A stretch of 64,000 nt of DNA, from the NCBI GenBank assembly GCA_965602855.1, contig CBFCZV010000012.1, positions 1,332-65,331 on the forward strand, in the 5' to 3' direction. Shown here piece after piece: positions 9,856 to 30,141 of this stretch (position 1 is its first letter; each line of letters starts with the position of its first letter). A program made the translations under genes and the position numbers. Source of the DNA: an uncultured Gammaproteobacteria bacterium. GTDB taxonomy: Bacteria; Pseudomonadota; Gammaproteobacteria; SZUA-229. The notes under the pieces are model-generated. The model did no database searches. It was given only the letters and a program-made list of their open reading frames with translations, and was not told where the DNA came from.

Positions 9856-9987
9856 ATGGAAGTATTTGGTGATTTATTCAATGATTTGACGGGCTGGTTA
9901 ACCATAGGAATACTAATCTTTATGATTGGCATGATGGCCTTTCTGACTAATATGATTATTAAAAAATCCAGGGGTGATGGAAGCTAA
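9856..9987 (+). CDS. possible 43-aa small hydrophobic membrane protein
   Basis: ATG preceded by AAAGAGGA with 7-nt spacing. Encodes MEVFGDLFNDLTGWLTIGILIFMIGMMAFLTNMIIKKSRGDGS. Too short for the supplied ORF track. No homology assessed. Confidence 0.3.
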   Translation: MEVFGDLFNDLTGWLTIGILIFMIGMMAFLTNMIIKKSRGDGS

Positions 9988-10027: not shown

Positions 10028-10080
10028 GGGAACCCTTTCCCGACGTTTCAGATCTTGTCGGCATGGGGATGCCGACCTAC
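10028..10080. terminator. pair of perfect 8-bp-stem hairpins (REP-like / bidirectional terminator candidates) between the small ORF and pfaE
   Basis: GTCGGGAA-ccct-TTCCCGAC and GTCGGCAT-gggg-ATGCCGAC are two related GTCGG...CCGAC palindromes 20 bp apart. A further AT-rich perfect inverted repeat ATAAAAAGG-tgt-CCTTTTTAT at about 10180-10200 lies immediately 3' of the pfaE stop. Confidence 0.35.
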
Positions 10081-10217
10081 TGGCTAACAAAGCTGTCATT
10101 CTGAGCGTAGCGAAGAATCTTATACAGCTCTTTATGCTATCACTCCTCTACACCAGATCCTTCACTCTGTTCAGGATGACATAAAAAGGTGTCCTTTTTA
10201 TATGGCTCGGTAATATA

Positions 10218-10970: not shown

Positions 10971-10971
10971 T

Positions 10972-12498: not shown

Positions 12499-15400
12499 TT
12501 ATTCGGCCTCCTTAATACTCAGGCCAATATTTTCTACGGAGTAAATTCGCAGGCCATCTTTCCACAAGTTTCCATCGACAAGAATATCAATGCGACCGAC
12601 ATTATTTCTAATCTCTTTAACATGAACCTCAAGTGTCATCACTTTATTATCAGGAATAATCTGTCCTCGATAACACCAGCTGGCTTCATCTTCTACCGGA
12701 CCAAAGCGTGGGTTTTTAAAATCTTTACCCAGGTTCTGTTGCAGCGCAAAAACCTGTATCGATTGAATCATCGCCTCGACTCCCAATGAACCCGGCATCA
12801 CCGGATCCAGATAGAAGTGACAGGGATAGAACCAGTCAGTGGCATCGATCACATTCATGGAGTGGACATAACCCTTGCCATATTTGCCACCATCAGCAAC
12901 CACGATAGATTCATCGATAAAGTCCAGCATACCACCGGCCAGGTGGTAATAAGGTTTATCCTGTTTCGCCGCGTACAGATCCTGTCTGACCTGTTCAGAG
13001 TGAAGATCAAGCTTGATTAATCTATCATCAGAAATCGCTTCTTCTTTATACCAGGGCAGTAATTTTTTACCCTTATCCATACCCACCTGATTAGACAGCG
13101 AATCGGCGGTAAAGAAACCGAATACCGCATCACCCTCGTAGAAAGTTTCACCATCGCAAATTAATTCAAAGGTGAACTTTTGAATAATATTGTTCATCAC
13201 CGCGGAGGTAGAATACATGGTCGATTTATTGACGATGGTCTTGCCACGAAGATCAACTTCTTTTATTAATCGTCCGGTTCCATCCAGATTACGGAAATAA
13301 AGATTTGAATCTGGATAGAGCAAGGTGCTGCCAATATGCGAAGTCAAAAACCCATTCGGCTGTAACGCAATCTCCATTAACATCGAGTAAGGCGTAAACG
13401 AGGGGTAAGAATTCTCAGTACAGAACCAGACGTCTTCGGCAACATCATATTCGGCGGTACAGCCGGTGGTGTTATCAAAATCATGACGTTCACCCTCCAC
13501 GCTCATCACCCGATCCATTAACTGTAAATAACCATTGGGGGTACGTGGTGGTCGTCTGGCAGGATCACCGGCTTTCGCTGGCGGCTGTTTATAAATAGCG
13601 AACTCAGGACCAAAACAGGCTTCGATATCACCCGTGGCAAAGTGCACTATCTGCTCTTCGGTAAATAGCGGTGCTTTTTTGCTGCTTGGCACAACTGCCA
13701 GTGCTGGTGGTGTTGATTGCACTGGTGCTGGAGCTGGCTGCTGATTAATATCTGCCGCGCCACCTTTTAGCAACAGTTTTTCTGCGGCACTCTTTTCAGA
13801 TAGTTCAAGACAAACATTTCTAAAGTCGACCACCACTTTTCCATCTAGCAAAATATCGACGTTACCTTTGGCATAAGGTTTTGGACTCAGACCGATTTCG
13901 GTCACTTCCAGTCGGTAGGTCATCAATCGATCTTTGGGTAGAGCCTGACCCCGGCATCGAATAGGCTGGGGTATGTTCTGTATCGTCTGGAAGCGCGCAT
14001 CTTCTGTTTTGGTGTGCAGGCCTAAATAGAGCATGAAAAATTGCAGTAACTGAACACAACCTTCAGACATCAAGGAACCAGCCAGCACAGGATCATCGCG
14101 GAAGTGACTGGTAAAGTACCACTCATCCGGCAACAGGTCTTTTTCAGCTTCGATAAATCCAAGACCCCACAGGCCACCAGCAGGATCAACCGAAGTGATA
14201 CGATCCAGCATCAGAATTTTTTCTAATGGGAAATGCAAAGAAGGATTTTTGCCCATTTTGTCGTAAGCCGGATTGGCATAACAGGCGGCTAAATCACCCG
14301 TGGTCAACGAATGCATATCATTCTTATCAAAAGATGTTTTGCTGCATTGCAACAAAGGAGTAAACGATGACTTTGTCACGCGTCCCCGCTCAGCAGTTTC
14401 CTCATTGGTGCGAATAACACCCTTGCCAACGGCGAGCTCCTCTTCCGAGAAGAAACCGGCACAACCCTCATCCATTTTCAGGATCATTTTATCGCCGATA
14501 AAACACTCGTAAGAGAAAAAGAACAGCAGGTTATTTTTATGCTGGGCGAAAGAGTTGATGGAAATTTCATAACGCAGCGTCTGACCTTCTTTGGGCTGGT
14601 CATCCAGGAAGGTCAAAGTGCAATCGAGCAAACGGTACAGATATTTGCCTTTGTTATTAAAATCGATACCCATGTAGCTGATCAACAACAAATCACATTG
14701 ACCCGATTCGATACAGATACAGGTGGGGATCTGACCATCGGTTGAATACCAGGCATTGTGCGGAATATCATATTCCGTGGTCATTTTAGAAGGTTTAAAC
14801 TCACCACGTTCACCCTGCATTTCAGTAACACGCGTCACCAGCAAATAAGGATCCATCGGTAACATTACCCGTTTAGGATAACTATCGATGATGTCATATT
14901 CAGAGCCAAACACCTTGCCAATTTTTCCATAGGCAAATTCGCGTAAATCTTCTTCGCTGAAAATTATTTTCTCAGGCGTGCTGTATTCAGACGGGAACAA
15001 TTGTTTTGTCGCGACATTCTCATTAGAAGCAGTTGCTGCCGGTGTAAGCGAAGCCGTCTGAGTTGTACGTACTATATTTCCTGAACCCGGCGAGTGGATA
15101 CTATCAATAATCGATGCCGTTAAAGCCTGCAAGCCCTGATGGCGTGAAGCCATAAATCCTGCGTGCATTTTGCTGATGTTAATATTGTGCTGTAACATTT
15201 TTTGCAGCATTTCACTTTGATAAGTAGTTGAACCTCCGGTGACATAACCGGGCGTACCATTGGCAACTATTTTTCTCTCTGACATGTTTTGTCTCTGTTT
15301 ATCTATGCTTGCTGAATGCAGTTTATTTTCAACTGGCTCAGGATTTGTTTTAGTTACCACCGCTGGCTTGGCTGGAGGCATTTTAACTACTTCTGCTTTT

Positions 15401-18400
15401 TTAATTACCGGAGCCACTGGCTGTACTTTTTCAGGCAAAAATCTTGTCCTGTTTTGCTCAGCAAGAATGACTTCTGAAAATGGCTGCTTACCTAATACAA
15501 CCGGTTTGACCAAACTTGGCTTTTTGCTTTGCGCTTCATTCACAGCAGGATAAAGTTTATCCAGATCCATGGCTACGCCATGACAGGTCAGTTTGGCGGC
15601 CAAACGCAGTAAGGAGGTATAGTCATCCACACCCTTGCGATTAATGTTCACCGCAAGATGCTGTTTGCCTTTCAGGCTTTCACCAATCCATTTTGTACAG
15701 CTGCCCTGAGGCCCCAGTTCAATAAAGATGCGCGCACCATCGTCATACACCTTATTAACCAGCTTTGGAAAATCGACCATGTGCGTATAGAAAGTCGCGA
15801 TATTGTGACCAATAACATCATCTTTGATTTCAGTTTTCTGGTAGTCGGCCGCGGTATAAAAATCAACACCTTCAATTTGGGTGGTTGGCATGGTGTGCAA
15901 TTCTTTAAGCGCATCAAACTCTGCTTTCACCAGTTCATTGTGAACAACATCTTTAATCGGAACAGGGAACAATTTCCATTTTAATTTTTTGACAACACGT
16001 CGACAGGCTTCATCATCACCAGCGATAACAATTTCATTGGGTGCGTTAATAATGATGAGGAACACCCTGTCCTCTTCAGCAATTATTGGCTCTGCTTTTT
16101 CTGGCGAGGTTCGCAAAGTATAAGTGCCCCAGATGGGCTTATCACCCTCTTTAGCCGGCGGCAGATTCCAGGCCTGCCTGACCACATCCATCTCACCGAC
16201 CAGGCGATTATGGAAGGTAGCGGTTGAGTGCAGAGTCTCACTCATGTAGTCGGTATTACCCCAGGCACCCGATGAGAACAGCATGGATAACTCGCCCATA
16301 CTGTGACCAAAAGCAGCACCAGGCTTAACGCCCAATAAATCCTGAATCACCTTGGTGTAGACAACAGAAGTCATAATGCCAGACTCAAACATGGCAATAG
16401 CATCTTCACCCATGACTTCCTCTAATTGTTTAAGCGCCTTTTTATCAGCTGCTGAAACAGTTTCAGGATAGACATAATGAGTGCGCATCATGGTTTTTAA
16501 ATTGGAGCTGGCGTTTGCAACCAGTTCTATGGTCTCGGGGAACATATGAAATATGTCCCTGGCCATACCAATATAAGAATTAAAACCACCAGGATAAACG
16601 AAAGCGATCTTGCCTTTTTCAGCCTGTGGTGTCGGTGTGAAGTAACTGCCTAACGGCGTTGACCACTCCTGTGCATTTTCCATGGCTACGGGCAGGCCTT
16701 TTTGAGCTGCAAGAATTTCACGCTGCAATTCTTCAGATGAATGCGCCAGTACTGTGATACGAAATTTTGCAGTCGTATTTTTCTTAAACTGCTGGTATTT
16801 ATCCAGCGAAAGTTGTTTTAAAGAAATCGTCTGTGCGGATTCTACTTGCAGTGAATCCAGCTCCTGCAATAACGTTTTTTCTGACTGGGCGCTAAGCGGG
16901 AACATAAAGAAGGACAGATTTTCAAAAAAATCATTCTTCGGTGTTTGAGCCTTATCGGCTTCAGATAAAATCAAATGATAGCAGCTGTCATCCTGACCCA
17001 GACTATTGATCGCCGCATAACGTTTTTTATGATCACTGTTAATCAACCAGGGGCGGGACTGCTCGGGAAAATAAAAATTATTTTCATCCCAGCTGGATAA
17101 ATCTTTTGGTTTATCCCAGCCGGGAATGCCCGGAATAAAACGCTGATGAATGCACAGCGCTGTTTTTACCAGACTGGCAATACCGGAAGCGGCAAAAGTG
17201 TGACCAATATTGGCTTTCACACTTCCTAGTGCACAAGTTTGTTTCTGGTAGGTTTTTTTCAGGGCCACAATTTCGGCATCATCCTGATTCTGGATACCAC
17301 TGCCGTTTAATTCAATATAATCAATCTGATCTTTGTCAACGCCAGCCTGTTGCAGGGCGTCGGCAGATGCCTGTTGTAAACTATCAGCAGAAACATTACG
17401 TTTACCTGCCAGCGCTTCAATCGTCGCGTAAACCCGCTCACTATTTTCCAGCTGATCATTACGCTTTAAAACAACGGCACCAGCACCTTCACCGATGCTC
17501 CAGCCTGTGCTGCCCTGATCAAAACTCAAACCAGCGTCATCATTTGAATCAAGTGGATTGCGCTGATTTTGAAGATAGACGTGTTCAAAACCACCCGCCA
17601 GATCCACCGCACCAACTACCATGGCATCGACTTCACCAGAATCTAAAAATAACTTAGCCACTTCCAGCGCTTTGAATACGGAATTTTCTTCTGAAGAAAT
17701 AGTAAAAGCCGGGCCGGAGAAATCCCACAGGGAACAAATACGACAGGGAATAATATTGCCGATAAAACTGGTGAACTGATTGATCTCAACCGCATTGTGC
17801 AGGCTATCTTTCAGTAGATCGGTGAGCTGTTCCTGCTGCACATCGCTCAATTCAATATTGCTGTTACGCAGGCTCTCCTGCAGTTGCCAGGCAACATCAA
17901 TACGCCCACGGAACTGATGAATCCCCAGGTCCATTTCCATCGCTACAATAACACCAACATTGCCACATTTAGGCAGGGTGGAATCTTGCAGCGCTTCATC
18001 CAGCACTTTCATCATCAGCAACTGTTGCGGTAATAAAGGCGCCTGTTCTTCCGGTGGGATTTTGAAATACAGGTAATCAAAATCAAACTGATCTATGTAG
18101 TTTCCCTGTGGTGCTTTTTCATCAAGACCAAATTTTTTCAATAACGGGCTATCGTTTTCAATACCCTGCCAGCGATCTTTAGGTAAAGATCGTTGCAAAC
18201 GTCTGGAGTTGTAGATGGTCTCTTCCAGTTCAGACAACGATTTACTCTGCCCGAAGTAAGCACTCATACCAACGATAGAAATCGCCTGCTCCGTGATTTC
18301 AGTCGGTTTCTGTTTTGCTATTTTCTCCTGCTGTTTTTTAGTCAACGGAAGATGCTCTTCCATCACCAGATGTGCATTAGTTCCACCAAAACCAAAAGCG

Positions 18401-19719
18401 CTGATAGCGGCGACTTTTTTATTCTTACCAGAACCTTTAGCCTGCGGCCAGGGACTATTTTCAGTTAAAATTTTATCGTCGGCAATCTTGTCACTGTCAC
18501 AACTTAGCGGTTTTTGAACATTAATGGTTGCCGGTAGTAAATCATTTTTCATCGCCAAAATAATTTTTAGCATACCCGCCATGCCAGCCGAAGTCAGCAG
18601 ATGACCAAAGTTAGATTTGGCTGTGCCCATGCTGAAGTGAATATTTTTATCGCCGAAGAAACCCTGCATCGATTGAATTTCAGTTTCATCACCCAGCGGT
18701 GTTCCGGTGGCATGACATTCAACATAGTCGACATCTTCCGGTTTTATTTCAGTATCGTTATAAGCTCGCTCATAACATCTTTCCTGACCGGCCTGATTGG
18801 GGCTTAAAACAAATTTTCCTTTACCGTCATTGGAGAGGCCAATGCCACTGATGACGCCTTGTATAGCATCACCATCACGTACTGCATCTTCATAACGTTT
18901 TAAAACAAACATACCGGCACCCTCGCCGGTATTTAAACCACTGGAATTTTTATCCAGCGGTCGGCTTATCACATTTTCAGGAAAAGCTTTAAAAGTTGAA
19001 AAACCCATGGAGACAAACCAGGGGTCAGCGGCACTAACCGCACCGGCCAGCATCATGTCTGCCTTATGCGACAGCAGATAGGAACAGGCGAGCTTCATAC
19101 TATAGAGCGATGATGCGCAGGCGGCATCCAGCGCCATTGATACCTCACCTAATGCTAGCGCCTGATTGATGGTGCTAGCCGGGTGACCGCCAACGCTACC
19201 ATTAGTTAAATCAGCAGCCGACTCGCCACCCATTTCAAGACTCTGATCATTGAGTAATTTTTTTAGTGGCGTAGCCAGGGCCTGATGATAGAGCGGCAAA
19301 AAAAGCTGGTTCGATTTTTTTGTGGGGAAAGAAAGATTGCCAAGGATTACACCGCAACGTTTCAATTTATCAGACTGATTGCTATAACCTGAATCTTTCA
19401 GCGCCTCGCGACTAACGTGCAAGGCCCACTGGAAAGTATTATCCAGATCATTTAGCTGCTCAGCACCTACTGCATAACCTTCACTATCAAACTGAAAGTT
19501 CTGAATATAACCACCGGTGGTGCAGTAGTATTTATCCTTGATCTCTTTGGCTGGCCCGTCTTTCGCTGGATTAAAATAATCAGCAGGTTCACGCCCCATT
19601 TGTTCTGCATCAGCAGCAACCCGTGAGTCTTTATTAGCAAGCAGATTCTGCCAGTATTCTTCAGGTGTCTCCGCTCCGGGAAACAGGCAGGAGGAACCTA
19701 TAATAGCAATCTTATTCAT
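12499..19719 (-). CDS. pfaC: PfaC-like multidomain subunit of PUFA/secondary-lipid synthase with embedded acyltransferase: KS - CLF - AT - FabA-like DH - FabA-like DH
   Basis: KS active site DAACASSLYSMKLA with HATGT and GHL motifs. A second KS-like chain-length-factor domain follows. AT domain with AFGHSMGELS (encoded about 16284-16313). Two FabA-type dehydratase signatures: YFTSHFRDDPVLAGSL and FYPCHFYLDPVMPGSLGVEA. Length is 2406 aa. Confidence 0.9.
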   Translation of the reverse strand: MNKIAIIGSSCLFPGAETPEEYWQNLLANKDSRVAADAEQMGREPADYFNPAKDGPAKEIKDKYYCTTGGYIQNFQFDSEGYAVGAEQLNDLDNTFQWALHVSREALKDSGYSNQSDKLKRCGVILGNLSFPTKKSNQLFLPLYHQALATPLKKLLNDQSLEMGGESAADLTNGSVGGHPASTINQALALGEVSMALDAACASSLYSMKLACSYLLSHKADMMLAGAVSAADPWFVSMGFSTFKAFPENVISRPLDKNSSGLNTGEGAGMFVLKRYEDAVRDGDAIQGVISGIGLSNDGKGKFVLSPNQAGQERCYERAYNDTEIKPEDVDYVECHATGTPLGDETEIQSMQGFFGDKNIHFSMGTAKSNFGHLLTSAGMAGMLKIILAMKNDLLPATINVQKPLSCDSDKIADDKILTENSPWPQAKGSGKNKKVAAISAFGFGGTNAHLVMEEHLPLTKKQQEKIAKQKPTEITEQAISIVGMSAYFGQSKSLSELEETIYNSRRLQRSLPKDRWQGIENDSPLLKKFGLDEKAPQGNYIDQFDFDYLYFKIPPEEQAPLLPQQLLMMKVLDEALQDSTLPKCGNVGVIVAMEMDLGIHQFRGRIDVAWQLQESLRNSNIELSDVQQEQLTDLLKDSLHNAVEINQFTSFIGNIIPCRICSLWDFSGPAFTISSEENSVFKALEVAKLFLDSGEVDAMVVGAVDLAGGFEHVYLQNQRNPLDSNDDAGLSFDQGSTGWSIGEGAGAVVLKRNDQLENSERVYATIEALAGKRNVSADSLQQASADALQQAGVDKDQIDYIELNGSGIQNQDDAEIVALKKTYQKQTCALGSVKANIGHTFAASGIASLVKTALCIHQRFIPGIPGWDKPKDLSSWDENNFYFPEQSRPWLINSDHKKRYAAINSLGQDDSCYHLILSEADKAQTPKNDFFENLSFFMFPLSAQSEKTLLQELDSLQVESAQTISLKQLSLDKYQQFKKNTTAKFRITVLAHSSEELQREILAAQKGLPVAMENAQEWSTPLGSYFTPTPQAEKGKIAFVYPGGFNSYIGMARDIFHMFPETIELVANASSNLKTMMRTHYVYPETVSAADKKALKQLEEVMGEDAIAMFESGIMTSVVYTKVIQDLLGVKPGAAFGHSMGELSMLFSSGAWGNTDYMSETLHSTATFHNRLVGEMDVVRQAWNLPPAKEGDKPIWGTYTLRTSPEKAEPIIAEEDRVFLIIINAPNEIVIAGDDEACRRVVKKLKWKLFPVPIKDVVHNELVKAEFDALKELHTMPTTQIEGVDFYTAADYQKTEIKDDVIGHNIATFYTHMVDFPKLVNKVYDDGARIFIELGPQGSCTKWIGESLKGKQHLAVNINRKGVDDYTSLLRLAAKLTCHGVAMDLDKLYPAVNEAQSKKPSLVKPVVLGKQPFSEVILAEQNRTRFLPEKVQPVAPVIKKAEVVKMPPAKPAVVTKTNPEPVENKLHSASIDKQRQNMSERKIVANGTPGYVTGGSTTYQSEMLQKMLQHNINISKMHAGFMASRHQGLQALTASIIDSIHSPGSGNIVRTTQTASLTPAATASNENVATKQLFPSEYSTPEKIIFSEEDLREFAYGKIGKVFGSEYDIIDSYPKRVMLPMDPYLLVTRVTEMQGERGEFKPSKMTTEYDIPHNAWYSTDGQIPTCICIESGQCDLLLISYMGIDFNNKGKYLYRLLDCTLTFLDDQPKEGQTLRYEISINSFAQHKNNLLFFFSYECFIGDKMILKMDEGCAGFFSEEELAVGKGVIRTNEETAERGRVTKSSFTPLLQCSKTSFDKNDMHSLTTGDLAACYANPAYDKMGKNPSLHFPLEKILMLDRITSVDPAGGLWGLGFIEAEKDLLPDEWYFTSHFRDDPVLAGSLMSEGCVQLLQFFMLYLGLHTKTEDARFQTIQNIPQPIRCRGQALPKDRLMTYRLEVTEIGLSPKPYAKGNVDILLDGKVVVDFRNVCLELSEKSAAEKLLLKGGAADINQQPAPAPVQSTPPALAVVPSSKKAPLFTEEQIVHFATGDIEACFGPEFAIYKQPPAKAGDPARRPPRTPNGYLQLMDRVMSVEGERHDFDNTTGCTAEYDVAEDVWFCTENSYPSFTPYSMLMEIALQPNGFLTSHIGSTLLYPDSNLYFRNLDGTGRLIKEVDLRGKTIVNKSTMYSTSAVMNNIIQKFTFELICDGETFYEGDAVFGFFTADSLSNQVGMDKGKKLLPWYKEEAISDDRLIKLDLHSEQVRQDLYAAKQDKPYYHLAGGMLDFIDESIVVADGGKYGKGYVHSMNVIDATDWFYPCHFYLDPVMPGSLGVEAMIQSIQVFALQQNLGKDFKNPRFGPVEDEASWCYRGQIIPDNKVMTLEVHVKEIRNNVGRIDILVDGNLWKDGLRIYSVENIGLSIKEAE

Positions 19720-19745
19720 ACGAAAAATCTCAAATACTTCTGACC

Positions 19746-22700
19746 TTATTTCTTTTTAAACATAGAGTTCAAACTTGGGCTCACGGTAACTTCTGCACCA
19801 AAGGCTCTTGAGTAAATATTTCCGCTTTGATCATGAATTACGACATCAGCTGTCATATTGGTCTCAGAGGTTGAATCCACATCCAGTGATATATAGAAGT
19901 CTTTATGATCCGGTATCAATTTATAGTTAACTACCTTGAGGAACTTCAGCGGCAGACTGCCCAGATGACGGTGCTCTCTCACCCAGACCAGCATTGCCTG
20001 GAACATCAGGTCAGTGGCAAACGGGTTAAGCGAACTAATTGGGAACTGGCCCTGTTCACGATCTTTAATTTTATCCAGGTTACAAAGCAGGGTTAATTTC
20101 TTCATCGAAGTGTTGACCACTTTCTCGATTCCCTGAAATAGTGATCCATGGAACAGTGTGCCATTTTTGTACAAGGTCTCCCCTGTCGTGGTTTCTGTTT
20201 CATTCAAATCAGATTGTGTATACATAGGGACTTCAGGGATTTCTTTCACAATCAGTATGTTGGCCTTGTAATGCCAAACCTGTTTACCCTTGCTATTTTT
20301 TGATGAAATGGTTACCTGAGAACAACTAATGTTTTCATCATTAGAAATGCCTTTGACATCAACCTGATACGAATCGGCCTGACTCTCATCAAACACGATG
20401 CCCTTGAGCACCTGAAACTCATCGCATTCAAAGAAACTATAAGAAGGATTCAGTCGCTCACAAATATTAGACATCCACGAAAGCGCGGTGGCCGATGGCA
20501 ACACTGGGCTTTCACCAATGACATGATCATTTAAAAATGGATTGTCCTGCAACAACAACTTGGTATTGATCTGGAAGGTACGCAACGGTGTGTTGGTGTT
20601 ATCGACATCCGAGCGCATTGAACTACCGACCAATAACTGAATGGTCTCACCTCTATCCTGATGCAATTCATTGCTAAAGATTTCTACACCTTCCTGCATG
20701 GGAATAATTTCAACATTCCTTTCCTTAAAGTAACGTTTCAATTCAGGCGTTACCATACCGCCATCCCAGGGTCCCCAGTTGAAGGAAACTACATGACAAT
20801 CTGGATAGTAATGTTTAAATTGATAAGCTGTTTTGTTGAGAATTTCATTGGCAACAGAATAATCAGACTGACCATTGTTACCGTAAAAACCCGCCGCCGA
20901 AGAGAACAGCGCCAAATATTTCAGATCTTCCTTTTTGACCAGCGACAACATCGCTTCCAGGCCATCTATTTTAGTATTTAATACCGCATTAAAATCAGCT
21001 TCAGTTTTCTTCTGAATTGGTTTATCGGCCAGCACGCCCGCGCCATGAATCAGGCCGGTAATTTTTCCAAGTTTGGCAACCGCAGGTGCTGATTTTTCTT
21101 TTAAGGCTGCACTATCGGTGACATCTGCACTGATATATTCAGCCTTACCACCCAGCGCCGCAATTTGATTTAAAGTTTCACTAATCTCACGATCAGATTT
21201 AATTGCGCGTAAACGTTTGTTGACGATAACAGGTGTTGGTTTTTCACCTTCATCCTGTAATACCTGCATAATTTTACGTTTCAGCTCAGCCTCATCTTCA
21301 CAGCCTTTTGCCCATTCAGGTTCAATCCCGTTATAAGGCGCACGACCTGCCAGTACAAAACCACAGTTATATTGCTTGGCCAATGGCATAAGGCAGGCAG
21401 CGGTAACACCCTTGGCACCACCACTAACTAAAAATACCGAGTTTTCGTTGATATTGTCATGCGCTGATGCAACTGGCTCGTGCGCTCTCACTTCACCAGA
21501 TAAAGTCATACGACCTTTTGCAGAGTTGCCCACCTCAACAATAGAAAGATCAGGATCAAATAACTCATCCATCAATATTTGAGCACCCTGTTTATCTTTT
21601 GTATCTGGACTCAGGTCAATGGCACGGCAGAAAATCTCATCCCATTCAAGATTTAACGTTTTCACCAAACCATTCAAACCGCCCTGACTTAATTCAAAAC
21701 GATTGTGACCCGCAGTACCAATCTCGCCATCCATATAAGATGCAGTGACAAAGAAATTACGTCCGTGCAGCGGTTTAGTCGTTAATGCATTTTGCAAATA
21801 TTTAGCAGTAAAGAAAACCATTTTCAGCATGCTTTGTTCGCGCTTGCTAAATTTGATCTTGCTGCCCTTATCCGCAGGCTTGGCACTGAGATGAATAAAT
21901 CCATTCAGCGGCTGAGCGGCGGTAACAGTACTCAATGTTTTTTCCAGCTCGGCATCTGTCGCCTTTGCCAGCTTAACGGTTTGAGTTCCTTTGGGTAGTG
22001 AACTCGGTTTGGCTATCAGCGATGTCGGGAACTGCATCACCGTCACATTCCAGCCCAAATCCTGCAATGCTTTTGCAGTGTTGTAAGTGAGCTTGTCACC
22101 ATTATCGGTGATTAAACAATTGCGCCCCGTAACGCTGATTTCTGATTCCAGTACATCAGGACGGGGAAGATACTTTTTTACAACGACACTTTCGGTAGTC
22201 GAAAAAGAACCATCATTAACGGTGCTAGCGGCCTCTTCTGCTGGCTCTGATAAAGCCCTGCTGATACTGCTATCCTGTGGCACCAGACTTTTAACGTACT
22301 CCACAATTTCAGCCAGTGTTCCCATTTCGGAAAGTGCATTCTGATCCATTTCAGGTAGTTCAGGGAACTTGCTAGTCATCGCGCCAAGAATCTCAACTCG
22401 CTTAATCGAATCGATACCCAGATCCGCTTCAAGATTCATAGTCAAGTCGAGCATTTCTACAGGGTAACCGGTTTTTTCATTTACGATTTCCAGCATGCTC
22501 TGCTGAATAGCGGCTTCATCTAACACCGATGACGCTGAAATGATTTCAACTTCTGTAGTTGTAGTCACTTCACCTGCACCTGACTGAGTTTCTACGTATT
22601 CAACAATTTCTTTTAACGTCTGCATTTCTGCCAGTGCATTTTGATCCAGCTCGGGCAGTTCAGGGAACTTGCTGGTCATGGCACCGAGAATTTCAACGCG

Positions 22701-25700
22701 TTTAATCGAGTCGATACCAAGATCAGCTTCCATGTTCATATTGAGATCAAGCATCTCAACCGGGTAACCGGTTTTCTCGTGAACGATTTCCAACATGCCT
22801 TTTTGGATGCTGGCAGAATCCAGTCCTGAATTAACCGCAACTGGCGCAGCTACCGATGCACTAGCACCGGATTGCTGTTCAACGTATTCAACAATTTCCA
22901 ATAGCGTTTGCATTTCTGCCAGTGCGTTTTGATCCAACTCTGGCAGCTCAGGGAATTTACTGGTCATAGCACCGAGAATTTCAACGCGTTTAATTGAATC
23001 AATACCGAGGTCAGCTTCCATATTCATATTTAAATCGAGCATCTCAACCGGATAACCGGTTTTCTCGTGAACGATTTCTAACATGCCTTTTTGAATGCTG
23101 GCTGAATCAAGTCCTGAATTAACCGCAACTGGCGCAGCCGCTGATGAACTCGCACCGGATTGTTGTTCAACATATTCAACAATTTCTAATAGCGTCTGCA
23201 TTTCCGCCAGTGCATTTTGATCCAGCTCTGGCAGTTCAGGGAATTTACTGGTCATAGCACCGAGAATCTCAACGCGCTTAATTGAGTCGATACCTAAGTC
23301 AGCTTCCATGTTCATATTGAGATCAAGCATCTCAACCGGATAACCGGTTTTCTCGTGAACAATTTCTAACATGCCTTTTTGAATTGCCGCTGAATCGAGA
23401 CCCGATGAGGCTGGCGCTGAAACTGCGGCAACCGGTGCTGCAGCAGCTGCAGCGATAACAGGCGCTACTGCACCTGCCTGCTCTTCTACGTACTCAACAA
23501 TTTCTTTAAGCGTCTGCATTTCTGCCAGTGCATTTTGATCCAGCTCGGGCAGTTCAGGGAACTTGCTGGTCATGGCACCCAAAATTTCAACGCGTTTGAT
23601 CGAGTCAATACCGAGATCGGCTTCCATGTTCATATTGAGATCAAGCATCTCAACCGGGTAACCGGTTTTATCCTGAACAATTTCCAGCATGCCATCCTGA
23701 ATTTGTTTTGTATCCAGAGCCGAAGTCTGCACAGGTGCCTGGACTGGTGCAGCAGCAATTGGAGCAGCAGCAATCGGCGCTGGCGCAGGTGCCGCTACTG
23801 GTTCAGCAACGGCTTGCTGGACCGGCGCAGCAGTTTTAACCACTGGTGAAGGCGCGGCTACAGCTGGCTGATAATTAGCAACAGCTTCTCCACCCATCAT
23901 TTGATGAGTAGATTTGTTGAATTCTATTTGACCCTGCAAATAACTTTGATGAACCTTGAGCGTATCCTGCTGGTACTGATGCAAATCAGAAATACTCTGG
24001 CTGATATTATCTGGAACAGCTTGGTTCTTTGCACCAAATTCATCCACTAAATGGTGCATCATGTTAAAGAAACCCTGTGAATAATCCTGCTGATTTTGCA
24101 GATAGGTTTCATGGGCACTCATGGTGGCAGACTGAGCCTGCAACCATTCTGACTGATTAACGCCCTGAGCTACCGTACTTACCTGAGCAACCTCAGTAGC
24201 CTGCGTTGTACTAGCTGTCGACTGAGCTATTTCCTGAGCAACTGCTGGACTGGCCTGCACCGGAGCTGACTCGCTTTGTGGTGCGCCCAGTTTTTGAGGC
24301 AATGTCAGCTGATAATCATCATTTAGCGTATCTTCAAACGCCTGCTTAGTCGCATCACTGACATAGTTAGCACCATTGAGCTTGATGTTCATGCCCGCTT
24401 TTTTGATGACGGGTTGTTCAACATCACGCTGGTAAATATCTTTTAGATTAAGCTCAACGCCGGCCACTTTCAGCTGAACCATAGCATCACGATAGAGCGC
24501 ATCACTATTGCCTTTAGGTGAACTATTCATGGCAATGGCAACATGAGGTCGATCGGCCAGAATAGTATTAACCAGACGGCTCAGTACATTCTTGGGGCCA
24601 AACTCAACAAAGATAGTGCCACCCTGATCAGCCATGGCATTGATCTGCTGAGTAAAGTGCACAGAATTAAGCATATTTGACTTAAAGCTCTGTTTAATTT
24701 CTTTCGCGGTTTTTGGATACGGCTTCGCAGTCACATTAGAGAAAATACTGGTATGTGGTTTTTTGAACGTCTGTTTTTCAATCGCATCGGAGAAAGGCTT
24801 ATCTGCGTAACCTACCAACGGTGAGTGGAAAGCGGCCGAAACCGGCAAGGCAACAACTGAGAAACCATCACTTTTCAGAGACGTAGCGGCATCTGCGATA
24901 GCCTGGCTTGGCCCGGCAACCACCACCTGTTTGGGTGAGTTGTAATTGGCGATAGAAACCTGATCCAGTTGATTAATTTTCTGCTCAATTTCTGTGGCAT
25001 CACCCATAACTGCCAGCATGGAACCTGCGTCATAACCTTCTTCGGGGGATGTGCCCATAGCGATACAACGAGAACGTGACAGACTGTAGAAGCCATCATC
25101 ATCGATCACACCCGCTGCCCACAATGCGGTTAATTCACCATAGCTGTGACCAGCAACCATATCGGCCTTAAAGCCACTCTGCTGCATCATTTTAAATAGA
25201 CCAACACTGACAGAACCAATCGCTGGCTGAATGTACTGCGTCAGTTTTAATTTCTCTTCCTGGGCTTTTTTGCCGGCTGCATCAAAGGCGCGTTCCGGGA
25301 AGACTGCACTCGAAAGTTCAGTGTCATTATCATCCAGTAAAAGCTGACCCATTTTGGCAAAACTTTCACGCATCGGTGGGAAGTTGAGGGTCAGATCCTT
25401 ACACATGTTGAGATACTGAGAACCCTGACCGGAGAACAGTGCGACCACTTTTGAACCGCTAGGTAATGCCTGAGCACGGTAGTGAACACCACCCGGATGT
25501 TCCCAGACTTCTTCACCCTGCGTTTTTTTCAATTGATCCTGAGCGGTTATTAAAAGCTCAATCACCGTGGCCTGATCCTCGGCGACAAAACCCAGGCGTG
25601 CATCGCTTGAAGGAACCGTGGCATTTTCTGCTTCGACGACAAAATTATAATATTCCTGCCCGCTATCATCGTTTTGCAGTGCTGCCAACCAGAACTGGCA

Positions 25701-27236
25701 CTTGCTGGCCAATGCCTCTGGATTGCCCGCATGTAATACAAAAGCGCGTGACATACCATGTTCGCGGTATCCCTTTGCGGAAATTTGATCCGCATCAGAC
25801 TGATATTCTTCCAGCACAAAATGGTAGTTACTGCCACCGAAACCAAAAGAGCTGACACCGGCACGACGTGGCGTTAGCGCATTATTGATCCAGGGACGAG
25901 TATCGGTATTCAGGTAAAAAGATGAATCTTCAATATTTAATTTAGGATTAGGGTTATCGACATTAATCGTTGGTGGCAATACCTTATGGTACAGAGCCAT
26001 CGCCGCCTTGATCAGTCCGGCAGAACCTGCGGCGGTTTTGGTGTGACCAATCTGAGACTTCACACTACCCAAAGCAATATGCTGCTTTTCATGATCTTCG
26101 CTATCAAAAGCCAGTTTTAGTCCATCAAACTCAGCGGCATCACCAGCCTTGGTGCCAGTACCATGTGCTTCAACTAATTTAACAGTGCTCTTATCAAAAC
26201 CGGCATCCTCGTAGGCGCGATTAATAGCCACACTCTGACCAGCCGCACGCGGTGCGTAAATACTCTTGAAACGACCATCGCTGGAAGTACCAACACCTTT
26301 AATGACCGCATAAATTCGGTCATTGTCCCGCTCCGCATCTTCCAGACGTTTGAGCATAACCATGCCAACACCTTCACCAATGACGATACCGTGCGAGGCT
26401 TCATCAAATGGCTTGGGCACTTCATCCGTAGTGAAAGCGGGAGTTTTACTAAAATTGAGGTACATGAAGGGTGAGTTATCGGTATCGACACCACCGGTGA
26501 TCATGGTATTGGCCTTGAATTCCAGCAGATCACTGATCGCCATCTTCATCGCGGCCAGTGAGCCAGCACAGGCAGCATCAACCACACAGTTAGTGCCACC
26601 CAGATCAAAACGATTTGCAACTCGGCCGGCGATCACATTACCCAGCATGCCCGGAAATGAGTTCTCAACCCAGGGAATGTAGGCCTTTTTCATTTTTTCA
26701 ATCAGGATCTGGATATCGTCTTCAGCAACACCACTGCTTCTGAGTACTTTTTCCCAGACCGGCCCCTGCAGGCGCGAAACCAGTGGGCTGATCAGTTTCT
26801 GACCACCACCAACGCCGAGAATGACCCCGGTATTTTCTCGATCAAATTCACCATCGGCATAACCACAATCTTTGATCAAATCACGGGCAACGACCAGAGA
26901 CAACAATTGTGATGAATCGGTGACTTCAAGAATATTGGGCGGCAGACCAAATTCCATGGGGTCAAAATCAATATCGGGTATGAAACCACCGCGCTTGCTA
27001 TAACTCTTATCGGGAGTGGCAGGATCGGCATCGTACAGGTCATTAATCTCCCAGCGATCCGATGGCACGTCGATGACGCAGTCCACCTTGCCCATAATAT
27101 TTCCCCAAAACTCGTGCAGATCCTTTGATTCTGGAAACAGAGATGCCATGCCAATAATAGCAATGGGAGTCTCCTGTAATCGAGAAGTGAGTTTTTTGTC
27201 GAGCGCTTTTGTATCTGCCATCATTAAACCTGTCAT
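19746..27236 (-). CDS. pfaA: PfaA subunit of PUFA/secondary-lipid synthase: KS - MAT - 5x tandem ACP - KR - PKS-type DH
   Basis: KS with DAACAGSLAAMKMA, EAHGTGT and GHTKTAAG. Malonyl-CoA:ACP transacylase GHSYGELTAL. Five ACP domains, each with LGIDSIKRVEILG (phosphopantetheine Ser), separated by Ala/Pro-rich linkers. KR Rossmann motif VSGGAKGVTAAC. C-terminal DH with DHVIGESPVLP (HxxxGxxxxP). Length is 2496 aa. Confidence 0.92.
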   Translation of the reverse strand: MTGLMMADTKALDKKLTSRLQETPIAIIGMASLFPESKDLHEFWGNIMGKVDCVIDVPSDRWEINDLYDADPATPDKSYSKRGGFIPDIDFDPMEFGLPPNILEVTDSSQLLSLVVARDLIKDCGYADGEFDRENTGVILGVGGGQKLISPLVSRLQGPVWEKVLRSSGVAEDDIQILIEKMKKAYIPWVENSFPGMLGNVIAGRVANRFDLGGTNCVVDAACAGSLAAMKMAISDLLEFKANTMITGGVDTDNSPFMYLNFSKTPAFTTDEVPKPFDEASHGIVIGEGVGMVMLKRLEDAERDNDRIYAVIKGVGTSSDGRFKSIYAPRAAGQSVAINRAYEDAGFDKSTVKLVEAHGTGTKAGDAAEFDGLKLAFDSEDHEKQHIALGSVKSQIGHTKTAAGSAGLIKAAMALYHKVLPPTINVDNPNPKLNIEDSSFYLNTDTRPWINNALTPRRAGVSSFGFGGSNYHFVLEEYQSDADQISAKGYREHGMSRAFVLHAGNPEALASKCQFWLAALQNDDSGQEYYNFVVEAENATVPSSDARLGFVAEDQATVIELLITAQDQLKKTQGEEVWEHPGGVHYRAQALPSGSKVVALFSGQGSQYLNMCKDLTLNFPPMRESFAKMGQLLLDDNDTELSSAVFPERAFDAAGKKAQEEKLKLTQYIQPAIGSVSVGLFKMMQQSGFKADMVAGHSYGELTALWAAGVIDDDGFYSLSRSRCIAMGTSPEEGYDAGSMLAVMGDATEIEQKINQLDQVSIANYNSPKQVVVAGPSQAIADAATSLKSDGFSVVALPVSAAFHSPLVGYADKPFSDAIEKQTFKKPHTSIFSNVTAKPYPKTAKEIKQSFKSNMLNSVHFTQQINAMADQGGTIFVEFGPKNVLSRLVNTILADRPHVAIAMNSSPKGNSDALYRDAMVQLKVAGVELNLKDIYQRDVEQPVIKKAGMNIKLNGANYVSDATKQAFEDTLNDDYQLTLPQKLGAPQSESAPVQASPAVAQEIAQSTASTTQATEVAQVSTVAQGVNQSEWLQAQSATMSAHETYLQNQQDYSQGFFNMMHHLVDEFGAKNQAVPDNISQSISDLHQYQQDTLKVHQSYLQGQIEFNKSTHQMMGGEAVANYQPAVAAPSPVVKTAAPVQQAVAEPVAAPAPAPIAAAPIAAAPVQAPVQTSALDTKQIQDGMLEIVQDKTGYPVEMLDLNMNMEADLGIDSIKRVEILGAMTSKFPELPELDQNALAEMQTLKEIVEYVEEQAGAVAPVIAAAAAAPVAAVSAPASSGLDSAAIQKGMLEIVHEKTGYPVEMLDLNMNMEADLGIDSIKRVEILGAMTSKFPELPELDQNALAEMQTLLEIVEYVEQQSGASSSAAAPVAVNSGLDSASIQKGMLEIVHEKTGYPVEMLDLNMNMEADLGIDSIKRVEILGAMTSKFPELPELDQNALAEMQTLLEIVEYVEQQSGASASVAAPVAVNSGLDSASIQKGMLEIVHEKTGYPVEMLDLNMNMEADLGIDSIKRVEILGAMTSKFPELPELDQNALAEMQTLKEIVEYVETQSGAGEVTTTTEVEIISASSVLDEAAIQQSMLEIVNEKTGYPVEMLDLTMNLEADLGIDSIKRVEILGAMTSKFPELPEMDQNALSEMGTLAEIVEYVKSLVPQDSSISRALSEPAEEAASTVNDGSFSTTESVVVKKYLPRPDVLESEISVTGRNCLITDNGDKLTYNTAKALQDLGWNVTVMQFPTSLIAKPSSLPKGTQTVKLAKATDAELEKTLSTVTAAQPLNGFIHLSAKPADKGSKIKFSKREQSMLKMVFFTAKYLQNALTTKPLHGRNFFVTASYMDGEIGTAGHNRFELSQGGLNGLVKTLNLEWDEIFCRAIDLSPDTKDKQGAQILMDELFDPDLSIVEVGNSAKGRMTLSGEVRAHEPVASAHDNINENSVFLVSGGAKGVTAACLMPLAKQYNCGFVLAGRAPYNGIEPEWAKGCEDEAELKRKIMQVLQDEGEKPTPVIVNKRLRAIKSDREISETLNQIAALGGKAEYISADVTDSAALKEKSAPAVAKLGKITGLIHGAGVLADKPIQKKTEADFNAVLNTKIDGLEAMLSLVKKEDLKYLALFSSAAGFYGNNGQSDYSVANEILNKTAYQFKHYYPDCHVVSFNWGPWDGGMVTPELKRYFKERNVEIIPMQEGVEIFSNELHQDRGETIQLLVGSSMRSDVDNTNTPLRTFQINTKLLLQDNPFLNDHVIGESPVLPSATALSWMSNICERLNPSYSFFECDEFQVLKGIVFDESQADSYQVDVKGISNDENISCSQVTISSKNSKGKQVWHYKANILIVKEIPEVPMYTQSDLNETETTTGETLYKNGTLFHGSLFQGIEKVVNTSMKKLTLLCNLDKIKDREQGQFPISSLNPFATDLMFQAMLVWVREHRHLGSLPLKFLKVVNYKLIPDHKDFYISLDVDSTSETNMTADVVIHDQSGNIYSRAFGAEVTVSPSLNSMFKKK
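22290..23710. repeat. five tandem near-identical ~288-318 bp DNA repeats encoding the PfaA ACP domains
   Basis: The 47-nt core gcaccgagaatttcaacgcgtttaatcgagtcgataccaagatcagc recurs at 22381, 22681, 22969, 23257 and 23575 with only a few substitutions. The supplied antisense ORFs 22641..22829 and 23535..23849 have almost identical translations because of this repeat. Confidence 0.9.
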
Positions 27237-27626
27237 GCCAATTAAATTGAATTCTTTAAATTACTGCACATTTGAACTGGTTGATTATAGCGTTTTAGAC
27301 ACCTTCTTGCACGGCTGAGAGTACGGCCATAAAAGATGCTGTAGTTCAAACAACTTAACCCAAATATTTCATGAAGTTTCGAGAATTACAGGTTATTTAG
27401 CTTTAGATCTTTTCCAAAAATGAGCGCATACCCATGAAAGATTCAGAATAATGGTTAAATATCTGAAAAGAAGGACACGAACAGGTTGTAGAAATTACAA
27501 CCTATAAAGATTAAGAAACACAGATATAGCCAGTATTACAATGACTTAAGAGAACTGCTTAGAGCGCAATCCAGCTATAACGGCAGGCGCGGGCTTTAGT
27601 CAATATTGCCCACGCCTTAAATACAA

Positions 27627-27833
27627 TTAACCTAAAAGCACTTTTGAGATGCTATTACCCAGGTCACCTGAGCCAGCTACTCCCAAAAATACTGCCGCAG
27701 TGAATACAAGGGGAAGTATTGTGGCTGCCAGTGTTAGATAGCCCGTTAAATTAAGTAGTGATTTCTTTGCAACAGAATTCGCTTTCGTTCCCTGCTCAGT
27801 AGTTGCATCATGAGTTTCTATTGTATGATTCAT
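27627..27833 (-). CDS. small (68 aa) predicted membrane protein, candidate sigma-54/NorR-controlled gene upstream of pfaA
   Basis: ATG preceded by AGAGGAACACGAT (GAGGA RBS). The C-terminal half is hydrophobic (LTLAATILPLVFTAAVFLGVAGSG). It lies 33 nt downstream of a -24/-12-like element. Same strand as pfaA, 390 bp upstream of it. Confidence 0.4.
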   Translation of the reverse strand: MNHTIETHDATTEQGTKANSVAKKSLLNLTGYLTLAATILPLVFTAAVFLGVAGSGDLGNSISKVLLG

Positions 27834-27876
27834 ATCGTGTTCCTCTATATTGCCCTGAATTAATTTAGTTTCTATT

Positions 27877-27893
27877 TATTACTAAAGCACAAA
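27877..27893 (-). promoter_or_regulatory. candidate sigma-54 (-24/-12) promoter reading toward the 68-aa ORF (and possibly pfaA)
   Basis: The minus strand reads TGGCATGGTTTGTGCTT. GG and GC are spaced exactly as in the TGGCAC-N5-TTGC consensus, with a mismatch each in the -24 and -12 hexamers. An AT-rich putative bending region and bEBP boxes lie 40-90 bp upstream on the norR side. Confidence 0.4.
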
Positions 27894-27933
27894 CCATGCC
27901 AATTTATAAGGCGCTGTTTTTATTCATAATTAA

Positions 27934-27970
27934 ATACACGTTGTTAATATGACATCCTGTGTTATGATGT
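27934..27970. promoter_or_regulatory. two GT-N7-AC NorR-type enhancer boxes in the norR / small-ORF divergent intergenic region
   Basis: GTTAATATGAC (27934..27944) and GTCGCTTTGAC (27960..27970), 26 bp centre to centre. They lie upstream of the candidate sigma-54 promoter and just 5' of the norR start. The motif is short and degenerate, so this is suggestive only. Confidence 0.35.
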
Positions 27971-27994
27971 CGCTTTGACGACAGTGAGATCAAT

Positions 27995-29551
27995 ATGACC
28001 TCCCCCAACTTTTGTAACGCAATGACATCAATTGTCGCAGACCTCTCTCGCGACCTGCCCTCTCAGCAGCGCTATCAGCGCCTGTTGAGCGCGATGCAAA
28101 GCAGTTTTCCCTGTGATGCCGCAGCTTTACTATGCCTGGATGGCAATTACCTGATCCCACTGGCCATCGACGGATTGAGCGATGACACCATGGGGCGTCA
28201 CTTTGAAGTTGAAGATAATCCCCGACTCGCTCGTTTACTGCATTCACGTGAGCCTGTTAGATTTGCTGCCGATTCAGATTTGGCTGATCCATACGATGGC
28301 CTGGTTGAAACTGAAGACCATCTATTGCATGTACACGACTGCATGGGTTCTTCACTGTATATTGATGATCAACCTTGGGGCGTATTAACGCTTGATGCCA
28401 TGAAGCCAGGGACTTTTGACAGTATAGACCCCATTGAATTACGCAGTTTTATCAGCCTGGCCGAAGCAACAGTAAAGGCCGCTGAACGCATACATGAACT
28501 GGAAGCACGAGTTAAGCATGGTGTCATGGTGACTCGTGAGTTACTCAAAAAAGGCACTGATGTTGAAATGATCGGCAACAGCAAAGTCATGCAAAAGTTA
28601 AAAGATGAAATTGCCGTGGTTGCACAATCTGACCTCACCGTTTTGATACAGGGTGAAACAGGAGTAGGAAAAGAGTTAGTAGCCGGACAAGTGCATGCCA
28701 ATTCAGCACGCGCAGAATTCCCCATGATTTACGTAAACTGCGCCGCACTACCAGAAAACATTGCCGAGAGTGAATTGTTTGGTCATATCAAAGGTGCATT
28801 TTCCGGCGCTGTATCAGACCGTGCCGGCAAATTTGAAATTGCCGATGGTGGCACTCTATTTCTGGATGAAATTGGAGAACTCAGCCTGGCCATTCAGGCA
28901 AAAATGTTAAGAGCAATACAAAATGGCGAAATACAGCGTGTTGGCAGCGACCAATATATACAGGTCGATGTGCGCATTGTTGCAGCAACTAACCGTGACT
29001 TACAACAAGAAGTTTCAAACGGTAATTTCCGCGCTGACCTTTATCACCGTTTAACCGTTTACCCGGTACAAGTTCCTGCATTACGTGAACGAGGTAAAGA
29101 CGTCCTGTTATTAGCCGGATATTTTTTAGAAGACAATCAACGTCGTCTTAGCGTCAAAGCATTGCGTTTATCTGCTGATGCTAAAAAAGCACTGCAACAA
29201 TATTCATGGCCGGGCAACGTACGTGAACTGGGTCACCTGTTGAGCCGCGCCACACTAAAAGCAACAACAGATCAGGGAAAAAATAATGATTCGATTATTA
29301 TCGACACCTCTTACCTGGATATTAGTCACGATTATTCTGTTGAAACCAATGAACCCCACAAAGAACTCACACCAAAGCCCGATTTAATTAAAAATAACCT
29401 CACTCTTAAGGAAGCTGTTGATGAATTTCAACGAGAAGCTATAGAAGAAGCACTGAAGAGGCACAATGGAAATCTCGCTTCAGCTGGACGAGAACTGGGA
29501 GTGAACCGTAGTAATTTTTATCGATTACTCAAACGATTAAATATCAATTAA
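27995..29551 (+). CDS. norR: NorR-type sigma-54-dependent transcriptional activator (GAF sensor + AAA+ sigma-54 interaction + Fis-type HTH)
   Basis: The N-terminal GAF region aligns closely by eye with E. coli NorR ([59 protein letters not shown]). The AAA+ core has [26 protein letters not shown] (GAFTGA variant) and a GSDQ arginine-finger region. A C-terminal HTH is present. Confidence 0.85.
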
Positions 29552-29622: not shown

Positions 29623-30141
29623 TTACATGGCATGACAGGACATGCACAAACCACCGCGTTCCAGACCAATAGTTAACTCACCCGTTGCCCCACAAACCTG
29701 CACCGATATATCTGCAGAAGCATTCACCTGCTGCTCACCAGCTCTAATTTCATGACACGAAACACAGGTTACATTACCATTTTCAAGTTGTATTCTTGCA
29801 TCCAGATTTTGCCGACTCACATAACTAGCTGGTGATTTATTTGCATAATGACTGTAATTTAAACCAACGGGGTGATTAACATTACGATGACCACTTATCT
29901 GTAGAGGCGCTTCGGCATTCTTTAGCACAATAGCCTTAGCACTACTGCCATCATGGCACTGCATGCATTTCTGTGATTGAGTTGAATTCGTTAATGGATT
30001 ATCAATAGTAGTAGAATTTGCATCTGAACCAAGAATAAATTCATTGAATGCATCCGCAAAATCACCCGCAACAGCCAGCTCTTGAAAAAAGACTAGTGCC
30101 ACAAAGATAAAACCCTGCAACCAATAACGTATATTTTTCAC
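29623..30141 (-). CDS. secreted tri-heme c-type cytochrome (three CxxCH motifs)
   Basis: Signal-peptide-like N-terminus MKNIRYWLQGFIFVALVFFQELAVAG. Three heme-binding motifs: CMQCH, CVSCH and CMSCH. 172 aa. Convergent with norR. Confidence 0.7.
   Translation of the reverse strand: MKNIRYWLQGFIFVALVFFQELAVAGDFADAFNEFILGSDANSTTIDNPLTNSTQSQKCMQCHDGSSAKAIVLKNAEAPLQISGHRNVNHPVGLNYSHYANKSPASYVSRQNLDARIQLENGNVTCVSCHEIRAGEQQVNASADISVQVCGATGELTIGLERGGLCMSCHAM

Follow-up and report, generated by a model that had tools for sequence, protein, structure and literature searches.

The region analysed here lies between norR and a divergent small open reading frame (sORF) in an uncultured gammaproteobacterium of the SZUA-229 lineage (GenBank assembly GCA_965602855.1, contig CBFCZV010000012.1, positions 1,332 to 65,331 of the forward strand). 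This 64,000-nucleotide (nt) stretch is referred to below as the window, and positions are counted from its first letter. The two genes diverge from an intergenic region of 161 bp, which on the minus strand, read outward from the norR start codon, is GGTCATATTGATctcactgtcGTCAAAGCGACatcataacacaggatGTCATATTAACaacgtgtatttaattatgaataaaaacagcgccttataaatTGGCATGgtttGTGCTTtagtaataaatagaaactaaattaattcagggcaatatAGAGGAacacgatATG. Beyond the sORF, on the same strand, lies a pfa cluster of the kind associated with polyunsaturated fatty acid (PUFA) synthesis. A preliminary description of this DNA had proposed that a sigma-54 promoter with boxes for the nitric oxide (NO) sensor NorR drives the sORF, and that transcription might read through into pfaA. 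All sequence elements named in it were found, but most of their positions had been given 8–9 nt too low. The 17-mer with the sigma-54 promoter, whose −24/−12 spacing is canonical as claimed, lies at 27901..27885 of the minus strand and not at 27893..27877, and the two perfect GT-N7-AC boxes placed at 27934..27944 and 27960..27970 are at 27943..27953 and 27969..27979. Those two had been taken as the only clear boxes; a third, imperfect one (GTCATATTGAT, 27999..27989) had been overlooked. Between the end of the 17-mer and the sORF start codon there are 51 nt instead of 33, and the transcription start expected near 27866 is now predicted at ~27874, with a leader of ~41 nt. The 68-amino-acid (aa) frame at 27833..27627 of the minus strand, the GAGGA ribosome-binding site (RBS) that precedes its ATG by 7 nt, and the distance of 390 nt to the pfaA start codon at 27236 on the same strand stand as described. 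Feature coordinates are collected in Table 1; L numbers denote related loci or contigs compared with the window.

Table 1 Features of the norR–sORF–pfaA region, with positions in the window
Feature	Position	Strand	Remarks
norR, GAF - AAA+ sigma-54 activator - HTH_8 enhancer-binding protein, 518 aa	27995..29551	+	NCBIfam NF003451
NorR box 1, GTCATATTGAT	27989..27999	.	imperfect (AT for AC); overlaps norR ATG; matrix rank 6/63,990; 6/11 columns invariant
NorR box 2, GTCAAAGCGAC	27969..27979	.	perfect GT-N7-AC; matrix rank 12; conserved in relatives
Sigma-70-like norR promoter candidate, TTGTTA-16-TATGAT, with TG	27941..27968	+	consensus scan only; overlaps boxes 2-3
NorR box 3, GTCATATTAAC	27943..27953	.	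perfect GT-N7-AC; top-scoring site of whole window; mean column conservation 0.92
Integration host factor (IHF)-like element, AAACAGCGCCTTA	27907..27919	-	2 mismatches to WATCAANNNNTTR; inside AT-rich spacer
Putative sigma-54 promoter, TGGCATG-N4-GTGCTT (TGGCATGGTTTGTGCTT)	27885..27901	-	GG at -25/-24, GC at -13/-12; occurs once in window
RBS, AGAGGA	27841..27846	-	7 nt before ATG; 5/6 columns invariant across loci
sORF, 68 aa	27627..27833	-	variable hydrophilic N-terminus, KK, one transmembrane (TM) helix (~26-53), conserved C-terminal GDLGNSISKVLLG
GC-rich stem-loop, 10 bp, 13-nt loop	27585..27617	-	starts 10 nt after sORF stop; candidate terminator or 3' stabiliser
Candidate pfaA promoter, perfect TATAAT	27284..27289	-	~48 nt upstream of pfaA ATG; weak -35 GTGCAA at 27312..27307
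pfa cluster: pfaA, KS-CLF-AT-FabA-FabA protein, pfaD, phosphopantetheinyl transferase (PPTase)	10218..27236	-	Pfam, NCBIfam

The regulator had been correctly recognised as NorR: its product reaches 736 bits against the NorR equivalog model NF003451, for which the cut-off is 476, and carries the Pfam domains GAF, Sigma54_activat, AAA_lid_14 and HTH_8. The sORF is thus linked to the gene of a NorR orthologue, an enhancer-binding protein of GAF–AAA+–HTH architecture encoded divergently 161 bp away. In an alignment with E. coli NorR, to which the protein is 49% identical, residues R77, D98, D101, C116 and D134 match R75, D96, D99, C113 and D131, which were reportedly proposed by Tucker et al. in 2008 as ligands of the NO-sensing iron. 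The protein also has a sigma-54 contact loop, which reads GAFSGA rather than GAFTGA. The arginine associated with interdomain repression in E. coli (R81) has no positional match, H83 standing in its place and R85 two residues on. That norR lacks a norVW partner here was also borne out, as tblastn searches of the 64-kb window for norV, norW, hmp, norB and norC returned neither matches nor relics.

Short motifs of the kind considered here are abundant by chance, with 159 GT-N7-AC occurrences in the window against 169 expected, and 45 matches to the sigma-54 consensus with up to two mismatches against 43.6 expected. An 11-nt weight matrix was derived from 36 NorR boxes, all from other taxa, at hmp-, norCB- and norVW-linked norR loci including that of E. 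coli. When 63,990 window positions were scanned with this matrix, the three boxes of the intergenic region ranked 1st, 6th and 12th, and together they form the best three-site cluster of the window; their scores add up to 33.0, which none of 200 local shuffles reached (21.4 ± 2.5, maximum 31.4). Likewise, the window contains a single sigma-54-like site that is preceded, 20–130 nt upstream, by two or more GTCA-type boxes. In the related contigs the best-scoring instance of this composite of promoter and boxes also falls in the norR–sORF intergenic region, with few weaker matches elsewhere; L007 has none there. Conservation is concentrated in the same elements: across nine related loci, 26 of 49 motif columns are invariant, compared with 24 of 111 columns in the rest of the intergenic region (Fisher P = 1e-4).

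The order of these elements follows that published for NorR-controlled promoters, in which three GT-N7-AC sites and IHF accompany a sigma-54 promoter (PMC2831303). Three tandem boxes, two of them perfect and one GT-N7-AT, lie upstream of TGGCATG-N4-GTGC (27901..27886), which has the −24 GG and −12 GC at canonical spacing. Boxes 1 and 2 are 20 nt apart (20 nt in Marinobacterium, 21 nt in E. coli) and boxes 2 and 3 are 26 nt apart (24–25 nt in E. coli and Marinobacterium); the box centres lie at −120, −100 and −74 from the predicted transcription start. All 10 of 10 loci have an unchanged TTGGCA, and the better TGGCACG is found in most relatives. Between the boxes and the promoter is an AT-rich spacer (27942..27902). 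Alignments place a perfect WATCAANNNNTTR at the position of the window's IHF-like element in L001, L003 and L007, and an ATCAA element is found at the equivalent position in Marinobacterium and E. coli. Since IHF binds between the NorR sites and the promoter at E. coli norV (PMC2831303), it may also bind at this element of the window. A candidate sigma-70-like promoter of norR itself overlaps boxes 2 and 3, although such matches are no more numerous in the region than in shuffles; if functional, the overlap would permit autoregulation of norR. In two relatives, L006 (3925..4000) and L014 (2315..2390), a duplication of ~54 nt spans boxes 2 and 3, giving five NorR-type boxes in front of the same promoter.

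The layout was compared with loci outside the clade by scanning the NorR protein of the window against one genome per species, which returned 17 loci. The two closest (88–91% identity) carry the sORF. Next come norR genes of Neptuniibacter and of Pseudomonadales metagenome-assembled genomes (MAGs), whose products are 65–72% identical and which diverge from norCB, followed by those of Marinobacterium, Halieaceae and Moraxellaceae, 53–59% identical and divergent from hmp. Intergenic geometry is nearly identical across the sORF, hmp and norCB loci. Counted from a segment starting just inside norR, box 1, which overlaps the norR ATG, has an offset of 5 in both the window and Marinobacterium, box 2 of 25 in both, box 3 of 51 and ~50, and TGGCA of 103 and 103–104, respectively. 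The promoter precedes the ATG of its target by 52 nt in the window and by 52–57 nt in Marinobacterium (69 nt in L027). Relative to the norR start codon, the positions of box 1 and of TGGCA (~103 nt) are the same as at the hmp- and norCB-linked loci.

Each of these known systems differs from the window chiefly in what the promoter serves. The norR–hmp loci (P. aeruginosa fhpR–fhp type; L023–L028, L030 and L033 among Marinobacterium, Halieaceae and Moraxellaceae) share the offsets of boxes and TGGCAC and the promoter-to-ATG distance, but their divergent gene encodes a flavohaemoglobin of ~395 aa where the window has the sORF. The norR–norCB loci (R. eutropha norR–norAB type; Neptuniibacter and Pseudomonadales MAGs L019–L022 and L031), which hold the closest NorR proteins outside the clade, have the same box and promoter layout, whereas their target is a membrane NO reductase and three of them have a 187-nt leader. 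At E. coli norR–norV the boxes GTCAATTTGAC, GTCATATCGAC and GTCATTTTGAC, which read GTCA-N4-GAC, are spaced by 21 and 24 nt and followed by TGGCACGCAATCTGCA. The window resembles this locus in having norR divergent from its target, three tandem boxes of the GTCA...AC type 20–26 nt apart, an AT-rich, IHF-like spacer between boxes and promoter, a promoter of the form TGGCAYG-N4-xTGC, and a NorR with conserved iron-ligand residues (PMC2831303). It differs in that the target is a 68-aa membrane protein and not a flavorubredoxin with its reductase, that box 1 has an imperfect sequence and extends over the norR start codon instead of lying 13 nt upstream of it, and that the enhancer is ~11 nt closer to the promoter (E. 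coli centres −131, −110 and −86). A different small protein is found at L029 of Halopseudomonas pertucinogena (3412..3783, minus strand; NorR 53% identical), where norR is divergent from a gene for a 123-aa secreted glycine-zipper-like protein with weak Gly-zipper Pfam matches. TGGCAC-N5-xTGA lies upstream of that gene, which may represent a second small non-enzyme target of NorR.

The pairing of norR with the sORF is a stable property of the clade. Searches by sequence and by profile among 5.8 billion proteins yielded 12 homologues of 57–88 aa, 13 when the frame of the window is counted, all from metagenomes or gammaproteobacterial MAGs, and an exhaustive HMMER search of 1.84 billion cluster representatives recovered seven true representatives, which belong to the same clade only. 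A further candidate, P0015 (1133 aa), was rejected, being repetitive and eukaryote-like and matching through its TM segment only. Wherever a contig extends far enough upstream (L001, L003, L006, L007, L009, L010, L012, L014, L017 and L018), the sORF is divergent from a norR of 518–521 aa; in L002, L008, L011, L013 and L015 the genes on the norR side are truncated. The gene after the sORF is convergent in L001, L003, L006, L012, L013 and L017, and the sORF is consequently monocistronic in these six contigs. The boxes, TTGGCA, RBS and ATG are conserved although synonymous divergence (dS) to several relatives exceeds 1.

The sORF is, judged from its pattern of change, a real gene, since its pairwise ratios of nonsynonymous to synonymous divergence (dN/dS) between the window and relatives are 0.17–0.35, every length difference is in frame, and its RBS is invariant. 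The GAGGA and the ATG do not vary across loci, and the tail G-D/N-L-G-x-S-I-S-K-V-L-L-G is conserved; dS is above 1 or saturated for L007, L012, L015 and L016. The protein has a single hydrophobic helix (Kyte–Doolittle maximum 2.29), and an AlphaFold2 model of modest confidence (pLDDT 67) consists of one helix from residue 8 to 54 and another from 57 to 67. No Pfam or NCBIfam family is matched, the best hit, to DUF2498, scoring 14.6 bits (E = 0.03) where 25 would be needed, and searches at E ≤ 1 assigned no family either. The protein thus falls outside the small-protein families of these databases, such as NorF-like proteins of nor clusters, although no direct comparison with NorF was made. 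It shows no similarity to NorV, NorW, NorB, NorC or Hmp. An origin as the fragment of a decayed target was considered and rejected, the tblastn search for hmp, norB, norC, norV and norW relics in the window having come back empty. The claim that the divergent gene encodes a small membrane protein and not a flavorubredoxin is upheld. In L015 (918..1184, P0011) and in P0013 the TM segment carries an in-frame internal duplication of ~14–20 aa, which predicts a two-helix version of the protein.

The positional identity with norR–hmp, norR–norCB and E. coli norR–norVW loci, the footprinting, the matrix test and the norR–sORF synteny all point to the same reading. The intergenic region quite probably comprises a NorR enhancer and a sigma-54 promoter of the norVW/hmp/norAB type that drives the sORF, with pfa outside the transcription unit. 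In such a unit, NO would nitrosylate the iron of the GAF domain and thereby free the AAA+ domain from repression; the enhancer-bound NorR oligomer, aided by a bend in the AT-rich spacer, would remodel sigma-54 RNA polymerase at 27901..27886, and the resulting mRNA, short and monocistronic, would encode a single-pass protein of the inner membrane, 68 aa long. The sORF would then fill, at equal promoter-to-ATG distance, the slot that hmp or norCB holds beside orthologous norR genes in sister taxa. As it occupies this slot, the sORF most likely encodes an NO-induced membrane protein, and it is likely that this small protein alone represents a new NO-induced member of the NorR regulon that has replaced hmp or norCB.

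Several observations weigh against this reading. Box 1 is imperfect, which is a caveat because none of the three NorR sites is dispensable in E. coli (PMC2831303), and the norR start codon confounds the conservation of this box. Two mismatches are present in the window's IHF-like element, and, as the preliminary description noted, both promoter hexamers are mismatched as well (TGGCAT, GTGC). The C at −12 is lost in two of ten loci, both distant homologues (L015 with GA, L016 with GT). The protein lacks conserved Cys, His and Met residues, homology outside its own family is not detectable, and a biochemical role can therefore not be derived for it. Termination after the sORF in the window is itself a prediction, as the hairpin that follows it has no U-tract and a z-score of −1.6.

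The imperfect hexamers and the lost −12 C would fit a model in which the boxes serve norR autoregulation only, the −24/−12 element is the decaying remainder of an hmp or norCB promoter that has been lost, and the sORF is driven by sigma-70 or expressed constitutively. A replacement event did occur, since hmp or norCB stands at this position in sister taxa, and the sigma-70-like norR promoter that overlaps boxes 2 and 3 would fit the same account. However, TTGGCA and its spacing to the −13 G are invariant across ten loci despite saturated synonymous divergence, which is unexpected for a relic, and the better TGGCACG of most relatives also speaks against decay. Moreover, a consensus scan found no sigma-70 promoter on the sORF strand, and hmp, norB and norC have left no remnants in the window; we regard this account as very improbable. 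Even less credible is that the 68-codon frame is untranslated and that the promoter drives a non-coding RNA or a 5' leader. The frame is very short and without family annotation, but its dN/dS values, length differences in multiples of three, invariant GAGGA and ATG and conserved C-terminal peptide motif are those of a coding sequence, and a search of 27100..28100 against Rfam gave no match.

An NO-activated NorR/sigma-54 transcript of the promoter favoured here could, in those members of the clade that carry pfa, also run on past the sORF and through the 390-nt spacer to pfaA and so make PUFA or secondary-lipid synthesis inducible by NO, as the preliminary description had suggested. The two genes share a strand at a distance of 390 nt, the same arrangement recurs in L009 (pfaA 95% identical), and a terminator scan called no canonical intrinsic terminator, the stem-loop after the sORF being without a U-tract. 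Yet the norR–sORF pair is kept regardless of pfa. A convergent M90 peptidase gene and hrpB follow the sORF after ~100–400 nt in L001, L006, L012, L013 and L017, with no pfa between, and in L008 the sORF is followed only by an orthologous PPTase gene (59% identical). Because the M90 peptidase gene and hrpB follow the sORF in these five contigs, and the same two genes are found at 6291..9679 of the window, the 17.4-kb pfa cluster is, on this genomic comparison, a presence/absence polymorphism located between the sORF and this gene pair; the NorR promoter and the sORF have no conserved linkage with pfaA. Immediately after the sORF stop, the stable GC-rich hairpin (minimum free energy −22.7 kcal/mol, marginally better than shuffles) is retained in L009 with one compensatory change from C-G to U-A, and at the equivalent place other loci form hairpins whose sequences are unrelated. 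The perfect TATAAT upstream of pfaA lies within a block, CTAAAACGCTATAATC, common to the window and L009. This block is the best-conserved part of a spacer that is otherwise 72% identical with an 86-nt indel, and TATAAT may therefore be pfaA's own promoter; the consensus scan had missed this candidate owing to its −35 threshold. Read-through into pfaA thus appears unnecessary, is not conserved among the loci compared and is probably impeded, and literature searches showed no link of NorR to pfa, nor of NorR to a small-protein target of this kind. We consider read-through unlikely and the pfa cluster most likely not a NorR target, so that the proposed NO control of PUFA synthesis is not sustained.

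The NorR promoter inferred for the sORF is, as far as its anatomy tells, an ordinary and well-supported one, whose unusual output is confined to one clade and lies outside the known members of the NorR regulon. The gene norR is usually clustered with its target, and the known targets are norVW, norAB/norCB, hmp, hcp-hcr, dnrN and nnrS (PMC1274295). The sORF encodes none of these NO-related proteins (norVW, norAB/norCB, hmp, hcp, dnrN, nnrS), but an NO-detoxifying target is a habit of the regulon and not a requirement of the mechanism. There is a precedent in the NorR regulon of V. cholerae, which comprises hmpA and NnrS, the latter a poorly understood non-enzyme membrane protein (PMC1274295, PMC3345576). 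NnrS is, however, a large multi-pass, haem/copper-associated and widespread protein, whereas the sORF proteins are single-pass, 57–88 aa long and restricted to a single uncultured clade, and no homology between them and NnrS was detected.

Across an uncultured marine clade, a NorR with intact sensor residues and a textbook promoter layout is paired only with a 57–88 aa membrane protein. To our knowledge, NorR is regarded as acting on a very small number of targets, each either an NO-detoxifying enzyme or one of the NO-associated proteins NnrS and DnrN. Judging only from its predicted regulation, its topology and the slot that it fills, we would guess that the small protein assists or modulates a membrane or respiratory complex during nitrosative stress. 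If it is NO-induced, it would offer a tractable entry to the protection of membranes and respiratory complexes from NO, and a reporter in E. coli may work, as the enhancer–promoter layout closely resembles that of E. coli. If read-through were true after all, nitrosative stress would raise polyunsaturated or secondary-lipid synthesis together with the small membrane protein, as a response to NO at the level of the membrane. This attractive idea of a link between NO and PUFA control is corrected by the finding that pfa is a presence/absence polymorphism at the locus.

The surroundings of the norR–sORF pair show some further variation. A small multihaem c-type cytochrome gene with paired CXXCH motifs is convergent with norR in the window (29623..30141, minus strand), in L001 (6835..8212) and in L007 (2725..3213); L001 carries two of them, of which one shows weak NapB/MtrC-like matches, and L006 has an ABC transporter gene in their place. 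The cytochrome could relate to NO or nitrogen-oxide chemistry, but its gene does not lie downstream of the NorR promoter. Within the pfa cluster, pfaA has the domain order KS-AT-5xACP-KR-DH, and the second protein (12499..19719, minus strand; 2406 aa) combines KS-CLF, an acyltransferase and two FabA dehydratases. As no separate pfaB is present, this is a four-gene cluster (A, B/C-fusion-like, D, E). In the contigs in which the peptidase gene follows the sORF, L013 has a called 43-aa gene between the two, and L012 and L017 have a similar stretch of DNA. An unlisted frame for a 44-aa membrane protein, MMEVFGDLFNDLTGWLTIGILIFMIGMMAFLTNMIIKKSRGDGS, occurs at 9853..9987 of the plus strand, between the M90 peptidase and PPTase genes of the window; it is DUF3149-like (22.6 bits against a Pfam cut-off of 23.2). 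Two short perfect hairpins, GTCGGCATccccATGCCGAC and GTCGGGAAagggTTCCCGAC, lie next to each other downstream of the PPTase gene (10040..10110, minus strand), where the pfa indel has one of its edges, and resemble repetitive extragenic palindromic (REP) elements.

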